Positions 20,004-44,788 of a DNA stretch of 51,129 bases are shown here, piece by piece. The stretch comes from a phage. The notes beneath the pieces are model-generated. The model made no database searches. It was not told the origin of the DNA and saw only the letters and a list, made by a program, of their open reading frames with translations. Numbering within the stretch: position 1 is the stretch's first letter; every line of letters begins with the position of its first letter. The translations under genes and the position numbers were made by a program. The stretch is from the sequence record PZ445411.1. The stretch is one strand, 5' to 3'.

Positions 20004-20231
20004 TTACAGACTGCAATCAGCGTTTTTAAAGTTATCAATGCTTACCCACTGAAAATTAAACGGATAGCCAGCCTTAACAATAGTGCGGTCGCCAACTCGT
20101 TTTACTCCAAAAATAGCAACTGAATACTGCATACCGCTATTTTCATAAATAGCCGTGCATTCACGCTTAGGCATATTTGCACATCCAGTCAGTGTAACGG
20201 TTGCAATCAAAACGGCGATTAACTTTTTCAT
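20004..20231 (-). CDS. lipoprotein, Llp-like superinfection-exclusion candidate
   Basis: 75 aa; signal peptide with lipobox LTGC; overall pattern resembles T5 Llp as I recall it; RBS AAGGAG. Confidence 0.5.
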   Translation of the reverse strand: MKKLIAVLIATVTLTGCANMPKRECTAIYENSGMQYSVAIFGVKRVGDRTIVKAGYPFNFQWVSIDNFKNADCSL

Positions 20232-20262: not shown

Positions 20263-20304
20263 ACTATACACGATCTTGCGGTGGGCGTTTAGCAAAAAGT
20301 GCTA
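20263..20304 (-). promoter_or_regulatory. conserved box variant + TATAGT cassette upstream of Llp-like lipoprotein gene (minus strand)
   Basis: Minus strand TAGCACTTTTTGCTAAAC, 20 nt, TATAGT, then RBS AAGGAG and ATG 20231. Confidence 0.45.
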
Positions 20305-20415
20305 TTCTGTTCCTTTTGTTCTCCGGTGTTCTCAAATCTGCGGAGGCTTAAATTTAGCTCAAAAAGTGAACAGTAATAGAGCGCTATACATACGAATAAA
20401 TATATATACATACAT

Positions 20416-28682: not shown

Positions 28683-28702
28683 TTTTAGCAATTAGTGCTT
28701 TC
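28683..28702 (-). promoter_or_regulatory. conserved box variant overlapping the HTH gene stop, followed by hairpin and T-run (terminator-like)
   Basis: Minus strand AGCACTAATTGCTAAAAAC, then imperfect hairpin GCCTGGCA...TGTCAGGC and TTTTTTG before the primase-like gene. Confidence 0.35.
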
Positions 28703-29158
28703 AGGTTTATACAGGAATCCGCCAGGTTCATAATCTGACATTCTTACCACTCGCAACATTTCACGCTTATCACATCTCTTTGTGAGCGGTTTTCCATTGG
28801 AATCAAATCGCAGATCTGGACGGCAGAATGAAGCGCGATAGCCTTGACAGCCATACTTTTTGTAATCGTTATGCACCTTTTGAGCGCCAGCGGCTGAAAT
28901 CATACCGCGAACGCGCCACTGATTTACAGTTTGCTGGCTAACGTTAAGACGCTTTGCCATTGCTGACACGCTGCCGTAATACTCAATAAGAATGTCAAGC
29001 CGTGCTTTTAGTCCGGCGCGCACCTCATCTTTTAGAACATAATAACCTGTCGGTCGCTTGCGCTTCTTCTTGTCCTTGCCTCGTCTTGTTCCGTTATTGC
29101 CATTAATTGTGCGCTTGTCAATCTTGCCTGTTGATACCGCGATTCGTTGCTCTTTCAT
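28685..29158 (-). CDS. HTH DNA-binding protein (putative transcriptional regulator)
   Basis: 157 aa; RBS GGAG; helix-turn-helix-like SAMAKRLNVSQQTVNQW; very basic N-terminus; sits at a divergent promoter region. Confidence 0.55.
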   Translation of the reverse strand: MKEQRIAVSTGKIDKRTINGNNGTRRGKDKKKRKRPTGYYVLKDEVRAGLKARLDILIEYYGSVSAMAKRLNVSQQTVNQWRVRGMISAAGAQKVHNDYKKYGCQGYRASFCRPDLRFDSNGKPLTKRCDKREMLRVVRMSDYEPGGFLYKPESTNC

Positions 29159-29172
29159 TATTCATTCTCCAA

Positions 29173-29214
29173 TAGCATTTTTTGTTAAACGATGATTTAA
29201 TGATTGTGTATTAT
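29173..29214 (+). promoter_or_regulatory. conserved box + -10-like hexamer (promoter-like cassette) upstream of helicase gene
   Basis: TAGCATTTTTTGTTAAAC, 21 nt, TATTAT (29209-29214); in divergent intergenic region. Confidence 0.45.
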
Positions 29215-29247
29215 ACACGCCAAATGGCATTACTCAAAGGTTTTAGA

Positions 29248-38476: not shown

Positions 38477-38519
38477 ATTATGCCAGGCTTTTACACCTGG
38501 CTTTTAACAAAAAGTGCTA
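38477..38519 (-). promoter_or_regulatory. conserved box + hairpin + CATAAT cassette (minus strand)
   Basis: Minus strand TAGCACTTTTTGTTAAAAG (TAG is the Dcm stop), hairpin CCAGGTGTAAAAGCCTGG, CATAAT 22 nt after TTGTTA. Confidence 0.5.
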
Positions 38520-39227
38520 TTTTGCGTTAGCTTCAAAGATTGCGCGAGCAAAACCGCGCGGTGTGAGGGAGCGGATCATCTTTGTACGAGATGATTTTCC
38601 GCCAGTTTTGGCCCAGCCAGGATTATACTTGTCGTCCTCTTTCGGTAGGATCGTTGCGCGCTGAGGAATAACAAAGCCGTTACCAGTCCAAAGGCATGTT
38701 TTCTTAAAGTACCGATCCCGCGCCGGAATAATATCAGGGAAGTCGGGATGTTTATCATCTTCCGGCAGATAGCCAGCGTAATCGCACGGATGGAACGTAT
38801 AATCAGGCTTACGCCATAACGTTGACAGCTTGCCTACAGGATTCTCTATCATGTAAGGAACACCGAAATAATCAGCGATATGAGCGGCTATTTTGCAAGT
38901 GTCGGCGGCCTCATTTTGGAAGTTAGGATTTTCCATGCGCTTTTTAGCCCAATGGCGAGATCCGCTGTTTGCTAATTGTGTGCAAGGTGGGAAGGCCATA
39001 ATGAAATCAGGCTTACCCCAATTTAAAAGTTTTGCGGTATATTTGAATAGATCATCAATCCACACATTAACGTAAAAAATGTTATCATGGATTATGCGCA
39101 CTGATTGGTAATCGCCGTGATCGGCATCATCGTAATTAAAGCAAATGCATTTATAACCAGCATCAGCCCAATCTTTAACAGCCTTACCAGATCCATCAAA
39201 CAAAGAGAAAATTAAACCTTTATACAT
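38517..39227 (-). CDS. DNA C5-cytosine methyltransferase (Dcm-like)
   Basis: 236 aa; motif I FSLFDGSG, catalytic PC motif FPPCTQ, ENV-like MIENPVG; RBS GAGGTGA. Confidence 0.65.
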   Translation of the reverse strand: MYKGLIFSLFDGSGKAVKDWADAGYKCICFNYDDADHGDYQSVRIIHDNIFYVNVWIDDLFKYTAKLLNWGKPDFIMAFPPCTQLANSGSRHWAKKRMENPNFQNEAADTCKIAAHIADYFGVPYMIENPVGKLSTLWRKPDYTFHPCDYAGYLPEDDKHPDFPDIIPARDRYFKKTCLWTGNGFVIPQRATILPKEDDKYNPGWAKTGGKSSRTKMIRSLTPRGFARAIFEANAK

Positions 39228-41357: not shown

Positions 41358-41603
41358 TCATTGTTGATCGTGTTTAACTGCCATCAGAACATCACAGGAC
41401 TCGTTAATAAATTTTGCCATGCGCTTATCATCACCAGCAGGGATTAGCGCGTTAAACTCGCGTTTGCTACTGAACACCGTCACTTTATGGAATGATGCGA
41501 ACGGCATAGACGGAAACTCCACGGTTTTCGTCAGTATACGCAAACCCATCTTTTTGGCCCTTACCTGGGCCTCGGCAAGTTCAAAATCCACTTCACTAAT
41601 CAT
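41358..41603 (-). CDS. hypothetical protein
   Basis: 81 aa; RBS GAGGAG; start overlaps upstream stop. Confidence 0.5.
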   Translation of the reverse strand: MISEVDFELAEAQVRAKKMGLRILTKTVEFPSMPFASFHKVTVFSSKREFNALIPAGDDKRMAKFINESCDVLMAVKHDQQ

Positions 41604-41872
41604 TTCTTGATCTCCTCAGCAATAAACTTCAGGACTTTGCGCAAAAACACTTCATTATTGATGGTAGCTGGCAATTCCTCTTTCACTTCTTGCGGCAGAT
41701 AGATATTACCGTGCCAGGTTAAGCAATCGTAATTGATACGATAAGAGCAAAGCCACTCGCAATCGTTATCCGCTTCCCAAATGCAGAGTTGCAGAACATC
41801 GACAAAATCTTCAACAGTCAGATCCAGACCGTGACGCTTTGCAAAGTTGAAAGTGGTTTTGCTGATGTTCAT
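41600..41872 (-). CDS. hypothetical protein
   Basis: 90 aa; RBS AGGAGA; Cys/Trp-rich. Confidence 0.5.
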   Translation of the reverse strand: MNISKTTFNFAKRHGLDLTVEDFVDVLQLCIWEADNDCEWLCSYRINYDCLTWHGNIYLPQEVKEELPATINNEVFLRKVLKFIAEEIKK

Positions 41873-41911: not shown

Positions 41912-41954
41912 AATGTACCCGATCAGGCGGATTCAGTTTTAACAAAAAGTGCTA
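41912..41954 (-). promoter_or_regulatory. conserved box + TACATT cassette (minus strand)
   Basis: Minus strand TAGCACTTTTTGTTAAAAC, 22 nt, TACATT; lies in the 3' end of ORF 41923-42210. Confidence 0.45.
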
Positions 41955-42210
41955 TTTGCTGACTGGTCATTATTCCATCTATTCCATTAATCAGGAATAA
42001 CAGGAATAACTCATTCTCGATCACCTGGATTGTGAGACTTTGAGTTTGATCAATTTTAATCAGGTGATTAACTTTTTGTGTGGAGGGGATAGAGAAACAC
42101 GGCCCTCTTGCATCCTTTCCTGCAATCATGGCGCGCGCATCTGTTATTTCTGTTCTCCGTGTTATCTCAAATAAGCCTCCGCACTTTGAGATAACAGAAA
42201 CGGCGTTCAT
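41923..42210 (-). CDS. hypothetical protein (first gene of the leftward block; start uncertain)
   Basis: Open frame ends at 41923; no convincing RBS for ATG 42210 or 42249; a conserved box lies in its 3' end where it encodes IALFVKT. Confidence 0.3.
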   Translation of the reverse strand: MNAVSVISKCGGLFEITRRTEITDARAMIAGKDARGPCFSIPSTQKVNHLIKIDQTQSLTIQVIENELFLLFLINGIDGIMTSQQIALFVKTESA

Positions 42211-42247
42211 CAACAAAAAGAACAAAATAAAATTTATATATATACCC

Positions 42248-42288
42248 ATAAAATCAATAAGTTAGTTATATATGTATTTATATTTGTT
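42248..42288. repeat. conserved AT-rich segment, copy B (partner at 20416-20455)
   Basis: ATAAAATCAATAAGTTAGTTATATATGTATTTATATTTGTT; followed by GT-rich degenerate repeats to about 42420. Confidence 0.6.
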
Positions 42289-42544
42289 ATTTACTGTTGA
42301 GCTTGTTCTATGGGTATATGGTGGTGTGGTATTGTTTGTGGTGATATGTATGTGTGATTGTATATTTTTTAATCAATGGTGATGTGTGGTGATTTTTGTA
42401 TGTATATATATGGGTATGGAGCAATCCTCCGTCAACCAAGTAAACAATGTCATTTTTAACAGAAAAACCAATGACTTAACTGAAGCATTTTGTTATCTTT
42501 AAACGCGCCACGTGCCAAAAATTGTTATTAAAACACAAAATATA

Positions 42545-42574
42545 TTGACATGTAGGAAAGGCAAGGCAATAATG
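42545..42574 (+). promoter_or_regulatory. strong sigma70-like early promoter for the rightward small-gene block
   Basis: Consensus -35 TTGACA (42545-42550), 17-18 nt spacer, -10 ATAAT around 42568-42574; 36 nt upstream of ATG 42610. Confidence 0.55.
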
Positions 42575-42609
42575 CATCCAGTTCAAACGCAACAAAAGGA
42601 GTAGACGCC

Positions 42610-43095
42610 ATGAATGAAGAAAATGTTAGTTCTATGTCGCGTAGTGAGTTCTGCGATATGCTTCGCAGCCTGGGCGCGGCAATTGGTAGCGGCGAGCGTA
42701 ACAATGTATTCATGCCAGCACTTTTCTTGTGCGCTAACGTGGAGAACGGCGACGCAATTACAGCATCGTACATGCGCCAGGTGGTAAACCGTGTGCCAGA
42801 AGTAAAGCAAAAAGGCGTGATCAGCATTAAGCGAAAGGTGACTGATGAGGGTGATGGCTTTGTGTTTACGCTCACTGAAGCCAAAAGCAAGCCTCGCGTT
42901 CTGACTGGTGAAGAAATCGACGAGATCGCAGAAAAGCGCGCAGAGAAGGCGGTAAGCAAAATTCTTAATCACCTGGTAAACGTAATGCCAAATATCACAG
43001 ACATGGAAGGCGACAAACTTGCTGGAGCGTGTGAGGCTATCGGGCGCTACCAGGATATGATTCGTAAACTCGCTGGAGGAAAAGAGGATGAATAA
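42610..43095 (+). CDS. hypothetical protein (first rightward early gene)
   Basis: 161 aa; RBS AAAGGAG; 36 nt downstream of a near-consensus promoter. Confidence 0.55.
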   Translation: MNEENVSSMSRSEFCDMLRSLGAAIGSGERNNVFMPALFLCANVENGDAITASYMRQVVNRVPEVKQKGVISIKRKVTDEGDGFVFTLTEAKSKPRVLTGEEIDEIAEKRAEKAVSKILNHLVNVMPNITDMEGDKLAGACEAIGRYQDMIRKLAGGKEDE

Positions 43096-43348
43096 GGCAT
43101 TAATTGGAGTTTTGATTGCAATTGCTACCCTGACCGGATGCGAAAAGGCATCTGAATCAACAGTTGTCGTAGGAGTTGAGTCAGATTTCAAAGTCGGTCG
43201 CCTGTTCACTGTTGACGGATGCACGGCATACCGATTCTATGACAACGGTCGAGCAATCTATTACACCAATTGCAAGGGCGCAACGGATAGCACATACCGC
43301 ATCGGCAAAAACGTAATGCACCAACAAGTCACAACAGATATTAAATAG
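43088..43348 (+). CDS. lipoprotein
   Basis: 86 aa; signal peptide with lipobox LTGC; three further Cys; stop TAG is the start of a conserved box. Confidence 0.55.
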   Translation: MNKALIGVLIAIATLTGCEKASESTVVVGVESDFKVGRLFTVDGCTAYRFYDNGRAIYYTNCKGATDSTYRIGKNVMHQQVTTDIK

Positions 43349-43388
43349 CACTTTTTGTTAAAACGCCAGGCGCAAAGCCTGGCATAAT
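43346..43388 (+). promoter_or_regulatory. conserved box + hairpin + CATAAT cassette
   Basis: TAGCACTTTTTGTTAAAAC (TAG is the lipoprotein stop), hairpin GCCAGGCGCAAAGCCTGGC, CATAAT at 43383-43388. Confidence 0.5.
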
Positions 43389-43420
43389 AGCCTCATCGAA
43401 ACGAGATTGAGGAAAACAAA

Positions 43421-43606
43421 ATGGCACGTCGCATCACCAAAGACCTTAAAGTTCTGAACAAAGAAAACGTAGTTAAAATCCTGGTTATCTGGGGCTACAA
43501 CGAAGAAACAGCAAAGCAGAAGGTAGATGCGGGTTATGACCTGGCTGTAAAAGCAATGCCAAACGACGACGCCAAAGGCATTGCAAACTATGTGGCTTTC
43601 TTTTAA
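43421..43606 (+). CDS. hypothetical protein
   Basis: 61 aa; RBS GAGGAAAACAAA-ATG. Confidence 0.5.
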   Translation: MARRITKDLKVLNKENVVKILVIWGYNEETAKQKVDAGYDLAVKAMPNDDAKGIANYVAFF

Positions 43607-43621
43607 TTAGCAGGTGAATAA

Positions 43622-43807
43622 ATGAAAACGAAATTAGTCCATAAATCAGAAATAAAGATCGGCGACACTGTGATTCACAACGGCGAGCTTAGAACGGTTG
43701 GTAAAGAGTCAATAAGCCACGATGAATTTATGGGGATCTTGTTGTTCGGTGACTCTTATCGGCTGGGCTATAAAATGGTTGAGCTTGTTGAAGAGGTAAA
43801 ATTCTAA
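43622..43807 (+). CDS. hypothetical protein
   Basis: 61 aa; RBS AGGTGA; followed by a conserved box. Confidence 0.5.
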   Translation: MKTKLVHKSEIKIGDTVIHNGELRTVGKESISHDEFMGILLFGDSYRLGYKMVELVEEVKF

Positions 43808-43808
43808 A

Positions 43809-43851
43809 TAGCACTTTTTGTTAAAACTAAAAAACGATAACCAGTCATAAT
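43809..43851 (+). promoter_or_regulatory. conserved box + CATAAT cassette
   Basis: TAGCACTTTTTGTTAAAAC, 22 nt, CATAAT at 43846-43851. Confidence 0.5.
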
Positions 43852-43906: not shown

Positions 43907-44788
43907 ATGTTAAAACTTGCTAACATTAAATTCCCGATCACCTTCGAATCTCGCGGCGTTGGTCATTTCATGTTTACCGACGAGAAGACATGCACTAAGT
44001 TTAACGAATACGGAAGCCCAAACGCTTCAACAATGGAGATTGAACACTTCATTGAAGCGCACAATAAACACTACAACTCACTCAGAGACTACGCTTACGC
44101 AATGCCAGGATACACATGTTTTCACTACAAGCCATATAAAGGCCAGGTGTTACCAGTGCGCTCACCGGAACGCGCAGAGATTCCGATGGTCAATATGAAA
44201 ACCTGCGACCACAAAAAGCTGTGGTGCTTAAGCGTGGATAACATCAAGTATCCGATTGTTTTTCATTGTTGCGGTGGTTCAACAATCAGGTTCACATCGC
44301 GCGACAATGGCGTTTATAGCGATGGTCAGAAATCAGAGTTGAAAGTTGATTTCTTTGTTAATGGTCACAACAAATTCAATCCGCACAATGAAGAAGATAA
44401 GGTGTACTACGTGGAAGACATTACAAAACACTTGTTTGGAGAAACACCATTCGGCGGCGGTAAGTCATATTTTGCGCAGGCGATAGATAACGCTGCGCGA
44501 CGCATTGGTGAGCAGATTCACAGTCAAACAATTAAGGCGTCTGGTCTTGTTGCGCAAGACGTCGTAAGTCAGGGCGCTATTGAATACATGCCAGTTGCCG
44601 CCACGCTAAAAGGCGTTCAGCTTGATGATGGTATGTGGTTTGAAGTAACGGCAAAACCAAAGACGATCGAGATTCATGATGATGTTGTTATTCTTCTGCT
44701 TCATTACGGTAGCGCAAAAAACCGTACCGTTGCGGGTGAGATTAGTATCAAGCGCGGAACGATGGTTAAGTGGAAGGTTAGCGCATGA
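43907..44788 (+). CDS. hypothetical protein with internal duplication
   Basis: 293 aa; RBS AGGAGA; two similar segments (NIKFPITFESRGVGHFMFTDE / NIKYPIVFHCCGGSTIRFTSRD). Confidence 0.55.
   Translation: MLKLANIKFPITFESRGVGHFMFTDEKTCTKFNEYGSPNASTMEIEHFIEAHNKHYNSLRDYAYAMPGYTCFHYKPYKGQVLPVRSPERAEIPMVNMKTCDHKKLWCLSVDNIKYPIVFHCCGGSTIRFTSRDNGVYSDGQKSELKVDFFVNGHNKFNPHNEEDKVYYVEDITKHLFGETPFGGGKSYFAQAIDNAARRIGEQIHSQTIKASGLVAQDVVSQGAIEYMPVAATLKGVQLDDGMWFEVTAKPKTIEIHDDVVILLLHYGSAKNRTVAGEISIKRGTMVKWKVSA

Follow-up and report, generated by a model that had tools for sequence, protein, structure and literature searches.

Two small genes behind a near-consensus early promoter of a T1-like phage: a DUF7174 protein and a DUF4884-related lipoprotein

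We analysed the phage sequence PZ445411.1 (51,129 nucleotides, referred to as the window). It is the complete genome, ~51 kb, of a T1-like Hanrivervirus (Drexlerviridae, Tempevirinae) and is numbered from the large terminase gene. Our subject is two overlapping open reading frames (ORFs) at 42610-43348, here called ORF1 and ORF2, for which a preliminary description had proposed a candidate anti-defence/exclusion pair. They lie at a divergent locus, where the small leftward genes stop at 41872 and a rightward block runs from 42610 into the terminase genes. A megablast search with 42400-43700 retrieved 115 phage records, the top one being 95.5% identical over the full length. The closest records, Escherichia phages herni, PGN590 and G29-2, are all Hanrivervirus members of ~50 kb. 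The two genes and the elements that belong to them are as follows.

42545-42573 (+): sigma-70-type promoter of ORF1-ORF2, TTGACA-N17-AATAAT, matching 11 of 12 consensus positions
42596-42601 (+): ribosome binding site AAGGAG of ORF1, 8 nt before the ATG at 42610, read from the sequence
42610-43095 (+): ORF1, 161 amino acids, ATG start, DUF7174 / phrog_4841 (Pfam and PHROG matches, purifying selection)
42637-42894 (+): ORF1 N-terminal domain, residues ~10-95, winged-helix-like (alpha1-beta1-alpha2-alpha3-beta2-beta3) in the AlphaFold2 prediction
42907-43077 (+): ORF1 C-terminal helical hairpin, residues ~100-156, acidic, separately exchangeable (AlphaFold2 prediction, breakpoints)
43088-43348 (+): ORF2, lipoprotein precursor of 86 amino acids, DUF4884 branch / phrog_6360 (signal peptide, lipobox, profile matches)
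43345-43363 (+): first rightward copy of the ATAGCACTTTTTGTTAAAA box, a phage-specific promoter element, which overlaps the ORF2 stop and ends the ORF1-ORF2 unit
43365-43383 (+): GC-rich hairpin of 7 bp after ORF2, without a U-tract (66-nt segment, -17 kcal/mol, z = -3.0)

ORF1 had been placed as the first gene behind a near-consensus early promoter, and this was borne out by the 11 of 12 matching positions and by the lack of any further ORF between the promoter and ORF1. Genome-wide, this promoter is the best intergenic sigma-70 match, and the sole other sequence matching 11 of 12 positions falls within a coding region. Close relatives have the identical sequence, and promoter-like sequences were found at equal distance, usually ~55-65 nt before the ATG, in Tlsvirus, Warwickvirus, Kyungwonvirus and Rtp.

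The 19-nt box ATAGCACTTTTTGTTAAAA occurred 22 times in a pattern scan of the whole window, against 2.65 expected, and its orientation was that of transcription in all 19 copies inspected in context. The box is followed, after ~19 nt that often form a GC-rich dyad, by a -10-like (c/t)ATAAT hexamer, and the start codon lies ~60-100 nt downstream of the box. The TTGyTA within the box stands 22 nt from the -10 element, which is too distant for a -35 role, and no usable -35 element was seen at the boxes. A 21-nt version of the repeat has been described in phage TLS (PMC11447400). The box promoters look like an activator-dependent or UP-element-like class that serves most early genes on both strands. 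Upstream of the promoter at 42545-42573, the pattern scan found no ATAGCAC...TTGTTAAAA box. Because ORF1-ORF2 is flanked by boxes but has none of its own, and is served by a canonical -35/-10 promoter, we regard it as a separate unit. This arrangement fits transcription of ORF1-ORF2 ahead of the box-dependent genes. The hairpin at 43365-43383 is a putative terminator in the annotation of phage G29-2; our terminator scan of the window did not call it because it has no T-run.

Both ORFs differ from their relatives mostly at third codon positions. Compared with relatives ~95% identical in DNA, ORF1 had 13-17 synonymous and 5-6 non-synonymous codon changes and ORF2 had 9-17 and 3-6, a synonymous to non-synonymous ratio of about 2.2-3.8 to 1. 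This third-position bias and synonymous excess indicate that ORF1 and ORF2 are selected, expressed coding genes.

ORF1, a member of DUF7174

ORF1 could not be assigned to a family in the preliminary description; this no longer holds. It matched the Pfam family DUF7174 (PF23796) with 156.5 bits (E = 5.3e-46, gathering cut-off 27 bits), residues 9-157 aligning to positions 2-151 of the 153 in the model. With a full-length match above the cut-off, ORF1 is a DUF7174 member, and all 58 aligned relatives matched the model too. It also matched phrog_4841 (E = 6e-28). DUF7174 and phrog_4841 are families of unknown function. A literature search returned no paper naming DUF7174, PF23796, phrog_4841, phrog_6360 or PF16225, and DUF4884 appeared in annotation tables alone.

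By tblastn, ORF1 relatives were found in 264 phage records, from phages of Escherichia, Klebsiella, Salmonella, Citrobacter, Cronobacter, Enterobacter and Pantoea. A large protein collection held 19 clusters at 90% identity, nearly all from ~50 kb contigs. A profile search of 1.84 billion representatives gave 73 hits, and those with E < 1e-10 were roughly 110-190 amino acids long, mostly about 150. The long hits of this search that we checked (P0113 and others) were Ig, TIG, SEA or propeller repeat proteins with spurious summed matches, and they were discarded.

At most inspected loci, the DUF7174 gene is the first rightward gene behind a non-coding region of 650-750 bp. These loci include Hanrivervirus, Tlsvirus, Henuseptimavirus, Warwickvirus, Kyungwonvirus, Rtp (rtp1, 30% identity) and Rogunavirus; the exceptions are two loci with one small gene ahead of it. 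The position is fixed across several Drexlerviridae subfamilies. Like ORF1, the DUF7174 proteins rtp1 of Rtp and A5PIV8 of TLS have a size of ~150 amino acids and are encoded by the first gene at the left genome end. The positional homologue in T1 was marginally detectable (hhalign E = 2e-4, hidden Markov model E = 1e-4), and no ORF1 homology was detected in the first gene of a Webervirus.

The gene is a mosaic, its N- and C-terminal parts having different nearest relatives (alignment A1). The megablast alignments broke at query ~585-601 (window ~42984-43000) and at ~688-695 (window ~43087-43094), that is, near codon 125, in the loop between the two C-terminal helices, and at the ORF1/ORF2 junction. 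Around these recombination breakpoints (42984-43095, codons ~125-161), some phages share just the 5' part with the window, and others just the 3' part and the genes that follow it, at ≥90% identity.

An AlphaFold2 model of ORF1 was built with the alignment of 58 sequences. Its mean predicted local distance difference test score (pLDDT) was 85, and every 10-residue block in residues 11-90 had a mean of 92-97. The predicted elements of this part (helix 11-26, strand 32-36, helices 37-43 and 52-59, a short helix 63-68, strands 69-78 and 81-90) follow a winged-helix topology. The C-terminal hairpin consists of helices 100-125 and 135-156 (pLDDT 63-88) and has an isoelectric point (pI) of 4.8. The top-conserved motif of the family, SY.R...NRVPEVK..G..SIK, spans helix three and the beginning of the wing. 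The model places the conserved basic and aromatic residues Y54, R56, R61, K66 and K74 on what would be the recognition helix and the wing, and conserved Arg, Lys and Tyr at the third helix and wing are likewise found in winged-helix DNA-binding proteins. The predicted order, a winged-helix topology and then long paired helices, is shared with CtsR (PDB 3h0d), which joins a winged-helix domain to a helical dimerisation domain.

Structural neighbours of ORF1 in the fold search were weak. Against predicted viral structures, the significant Foldseek matches were family members (top TLS, CS01, AAS23 and pSf-1) and none was annotated. Searches of NCBIfam, PADLOC and PDB sequences with ORF1 returned nothing. 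Structure prediction had been proposed as a check on the anti-defence idea. It gave a winged-helix-like domain with a hairpin for ORF1 and an all-beta meander for ORF2, and no anti-defence fold was matched.

Two specific candidates were tried and rejected. ORF1 resembles gene 0.3 of T7 (Ocr) and ArdA in setting, as it comes first after a strong early promoter of host type, but the protein is mildly acidic (pI 5.2) with an alpha/beta winged-helix-like fold and has no homology to them. A DNA-mimic anti-restriction protein was ruled out by charge and fold (pI 5.24 and net charge -4.4 for ORF1; family median pI 6.4, range 4.8-9.2), with no match in Pfam, PDB or the fold search. A match to the AcrIII-1 / DUF1874 ring nuclease at E = 0.2-0.3 was lost with a deeper profile and with the fold search; the ORF1 family has no invariant histidine, in contrast to the catalytic His of AcrIII-1.

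ORF2 and its linkage to ORF1

The preliminary description gave 43088-43348 as a small lipoprotein gene that overlaps ORF1 and encodes the lipobox LTGC. Both statements stand: the overlap is 8 nt, and the lipobox is kept in all 34 relatives. The signal peptide MNKALIGVLIAIATLTG is followed by Cys18 (codon 43139-43141). The precursor has the features of a signal peptidase II lipoprotein: a positively charged n-region, a hydrophobic h-region and a lipobox (MNK-ALIGVLIAIAT-LTGC; lipobox pattern [LVI][ASTVI][GAS]C in the first ~35 residues). In the mature part Cys45 and Cys62 are invariant, and the +2 residue is Glu in ORF2 and in nearly all relatives. According to the Lol rule of E. coli, lipoproteins without Asp at +2 are sorted to the outer membrane. 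The AlphaFold2 model of ORF2 is an all-beta meander with a pLDDT of 71.

ORF2 matched DUF4884 (PF16225) with 24.8 bits (E = 1.8e-5), which is below the curated cut-off of 30. All 34 relatives matched the model (best E = 4.9e-7), their core R-L-F-T-V-D-G-C..Y-R-F.D......Y-Y-T-N-C aligning to it, and precomputed Pfam in version.11 lists the family for every relative. A GenBank protein 98.8% identical to ORF2 is named DUF4884 domain-containing, and ORF2 also matches phrog_6360. The Pfam family is described mainly from Bacteroides, whereas the branch to which ORF2 belongs comes from phages of Proteobacteria.

A profile search gave at least 212 clusters of proteins of ~80-93 amino acids. ORF2 relatives were present in 119 phage records, including phages outside Drexlerviridae: Serratia myophages, Pseudomonas phage Dolphis, the Xanthomonas jumbo phage X1 and an Erwinia phage. 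On a Pantoea chromosome, a lambdoid prophage carries a relative in its nin region, flanked by the P replication gene and NinH/NinE/NinG. Another was found amid a run of small early genes on a 351 kb metagenome contig resembling a large phage. Chromosomal or prophage copies in E. coli were also considered, and a DNA-level search of complete E. coli genomes found none. From this distribution, ORF2 is an accessory, horizontally mobile lipoprotein gene as judged by sequence comparison.

ORF1 and ORF2 are not an obligate pair. ORF2 was present at 7 of 20 loci carrying an ORF1 relative, and each gene is also found without the other. In phage tiwna, an ORF2 of 93% identity stands beside an ORF1 of 25% identity. 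The junction varies from the 8-nt overlap to a gap of ~19 nt, and in Rtp it holds an extra gene of 20 codons. Elsewhere, the slot behind the DUF7174 gene contains a different lipoprotein, small hydrophobic peptides, a HEPN-domain protein or nothing. With such variable contents, the slot is a hot spot at which small accessory genes gather, often ones with envelope-directed products. Thus the anti-defence/exclusion pair did not survive as a pair; an envelope or exclusion role for ORF2 is retained as plausible, though of another kind than that of Llp or Cor.

The other slot lipoprotein has nearly the same signal peptide as ORF2, but carries Asp at +2 (inner-membrane type). Slot contents can be seen at loci L012 (3690-4010), L021 (1036-1596), L003, L010, L013-L016 and L018, and pairs of hydrophobic peptides of 35-50 amino acids are among them.

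Proposed roles of the two proteins

Our tentative reading is that the locus is an immediate-early unit of two independent proteins, ORF1 being a nucleic-acid-binding, dimeric regulator and ORF2 an accessory envelope lipoprotein. Host RNA polymerase would transcribe ORF1-ORF2 from the near-consensus sigma-70 promoter as an immediate-early unit. We infer from the predicted fold that ORF1 is a cytoplasmic two-domain protein whose winged-helix-like N-terminal domain binds nucleic acid and whose C-terminal helical hairpin probably serves for dimerisation. It would act as an early regulator on the phage genome, not as a neutraliser of host defence. Possible targets are its own strong promoter, the box-type promoters, or the adjacent conserved AT/GT-rich element. 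ORF2 would be exported, lipidated at Cys18 and, having Glu at +2, probably sorted to the outer membrane on its inner side, with a probable Cys45-Cys62 disulfide. There it may bind a conserved envelope component and alter the surface or periplasm of the infected cell, for example by excluding other phages or protecting progeny, independently of the receptor used by the phage itself. What makes such an envelope or exclusion factor plausible is that ORF2 encodes a lipoprotein, is accessory and horizontally mobile, and lies in the early region.

T1-like phages are common, feature in the BASEL reference collection and are notorious for contaminating laboratories, yet hardly anything of their early programme has been characterised. 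Should ORF1 be the first regulator made after infection, it would offer a handle on how transcription is scheduled with host polymerase alone. A DUF4884 lipoprotein that alters the envelope would add a receptor-independent exclusion or protection factor found in many unrelated phages. Both proteins belong to already catalogued families of unknown function and occur in dozens of deposited genomes, and our analysis narrows the field of hypotheses without revealing a new mechanism.

Several observations count against a regulator and envelope lipoprotein. No ORF1 binding site was identified in the upstream region, where candidate motifs were insufficiently specific. ORF1 was considered as the reader of the ATAGCAC...TTGTTAAAA boxes, ORF1-ORF2 being the sole nearby early unit without a box; this was down-weighted, as the box is near-invariant family-wide and ORF1 is strongly divergent. 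The identity of ORF1 between genera is 25-40%, compared with 60-80% for an Rtp52-like helix-turn-helix (HTH) protein of the replication module (264 versus 840 records by tblastn), a speed of divergence that proteins engaged in conflict with host factors typically show as well. ORF2 showed no sequence or structural relative of known function, and its sorting to the outer membrane is a prediction from the +2 rule.

The Rtp52-like HTH protein is a better box-reader candidate than ORF1, since it is highly conserved and its gene has its own sigma-70 promoter overlapping a box.

28685-29158 (-): Rtp52-like Cro/YdaS-type HTH protein, 65% identical to Rtp52, with relatives in 840 phage records

The promoter of this gene, TTGAGT-16-TATAAT (29237-29210), overlaps the box of the helicase gene on the opposite strand (region 29172-29237). 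This layout suggests autoregulation coupled to activation.

The preliminary description had put ORF1 forward as a candidate anti-restriction or host-takeover protein. On this account, the domain and the acidic hairpin would bind a host protein such as RecBCD, a restriction enzyme or an immune sensor right after entry. We found no positive support for it and consider it somewhat unlikely; the fast divergence of ORF1 makes it an alternative to be taken seriously. It is consistent with the place of ORF1 as the first gene behind the strongest host-type promoter, with its rapid divergence between genera while the position is retained, and with the acidic C-terminal hairpin (pI 4.8). Nearby early slots of relatives are annotated as Stp-like/antirestriction and HEPN-domain, and winged-helix folds such as Stn1 are also protein-binding modules. 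However, ORF1 had no match to a known anti-defence or defence protein in Pfam, NCBIfam, PADLOC, PDB sequence or fold searches, and the protein as a whole is not strongly acidic, with a winged-helix-like fold instead of that of a DNA mimic. Its position is fixed over many genera with different hosts, unlike typical variable anti-defence cargo. Most members of Drexlerviridae are reported to be highly sensitive to restriction-modification systems (PMC8594841), which counts mildly against an early gene of such wide conservation having a general anti-restriction role. In TLS, packaging is headful, starts at a pac site and leaves the DNA partly permuted (PMC11447400). For a genome that is headful-packaged and partly permuted, "first to enter" is not true of every virion, and the analogy to the first-entering genes of T7 and T5 is weak for this reason.

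An extension with more reach, to which we give a low probability, takes the DUF4884 lipoproteins as a new receptor-independent exclusion or envelope class and ORF1 as an immediate-early switch or host-factor neutraliser. Unrelated phages of Proteobacteria, whether virulent, temperate or very large, could then share the DUF4884 class, which would have a conserved periplasmic or outer-membrane target. At the ATAGCAC...TTGTTAAAA promoters, which have no -35 element, ORF1 might work alongside the Rtp52-like HTH protein or take its place.

A role of ORF1 in replication initiation or packaging, as an accessory DNA-binding protein that acts on the adjacent highly conserved AT/GT-rich non-coding element at the pac-proximal end of the genome, is improbable. 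Its gene would then be placed like that of an initiator next to its origin, or of a site-recognition subunit next to pac. A P22 gp3-type small terminase is already annotated, beside the large terminase gene, and ORF1 matched no terminase or initiator family by sequence. We found no iterons, and neither did the authors of the TLS study (PMC11447400). Furthermore, the conserved non-coding core is limited to close relatives, whereas DUF7174 is family-wide.

For ORF2, the exclusion lipoproteins to compare are Llp (T5), Cor (T1 and phi80) and Rtp45 (Rtp), all small lipoproteins that siphophages of enterobacteria produce in lytic growth (PMC12685063, PMC13164509). The window encodes a protein of this kind elsewhere.

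20004-20231 (-): Cor-like superinfection-exclusion lipoprotein (first noted as Llp-like), beside the receptor-binding locus, with a box-type promoter at 20287-20305 (-)

This protein had been called unrelated to ORF2, which we confirmed, as the two have the signal peptide and lipobox alone in common. The strand, left unspecified before, is the minus strand; the plus-strand translation of 20004-20231 contains stop codons. That ORF2 is itself a classical receptor-blocking lipoprotein of the Llp/Cor/Rtp45 type, directed against the terminal receptor of its own phage, is highly improbable: it is a small lipoprotein of such a siphophage with early expression and, as in the Cor-like protein, two Cys in the mature part, but its mature domain showed no sequence or structural similarity to Llp, Cor or Rtp45, its predicted fold is unrelated, and it is spread over unrelated phage groups. 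ORF2 lies ~23 kb from the receptor-binding protein locus, and relatives of it are carried by phages that differ in receptor and in host (receptors: PMC8594841). The placement of Llp, Cor and Rtp45, beside the receptor-binding gene and co-varying with receptor type, was not found for ORF2.

The surrounding region

The leftward side of the divergent locus and further copies of the box are listed below.

41600-41872 (-): divergent leftward early gene, served by the ATAGCACTTTTTGTTAAAA box at 41937-41955
41937-41955 (-): leftward ATAGCACTTTTTGTTAAAA box of that gene, at the left boundary of the non-coding region
43808-43826 (+), 38502-38520 (-) and 20287-20305 (-): other example boxes from the pattern scan

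Within the non-coding region, an AT/GT-rich core at 42212-42438 is nearly invariant in relatives, including one (L008) whose ORF1 is just 55% identical to that of the window. More distant phages have (TA)n runs and the box alone in common with the non-coding region of the window, and (TA)n runs are found even in T1. The core sits where the T1 and G29-2 records put the genome start. The T1 record begins 539 bp upstream of the first gene, with 1-2800 marked as terminal repeat, and the G29-2 record begins at the equivalent of window ~42090. We regard the core as a candidate for a pac-proximal or origin element.

A perfect 12-bp inverted repeat, 42160-42171 (TGTTATCTCAAA) and 42185-42196 (TTTGAGATAACA) with a 13-nt spacer, lies to the left of the core. 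The half-site TGTTATCT also occurs at 42491, and 8 copies were counted genome-wide against 1.8 expected. As an operator for ORF1, TGTTATCT and the inverted repeat at 42160-42196 were rejected, there being just 3 copies of TGTTATCT here and none conserved in distant relatives.

Downstream of the two genes, 43907-44788 (+) encodes an early protein of 293 amino acids that matched phrog_7116 in two stretches and has an apparent internal duplication (KLANIKFPITFESRGVGHFMF... and VDNIKYPIVFHCCGGSTIRF...). In one relative this protein is labelled "tail fiber protein", a doubtful label given the early-region location.

A group of GenBank records, MG0656xx ("Campylobacter phage A118, A127, A15a ..."), is labelled as Campylobacter jejuni phages and has sequences near-identical to those of T1-like phages of E. 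coli; in one of these records the Rtp52-like protein is 100% identical. These records may be mislabelled, or may derive from contaminating coliphages.
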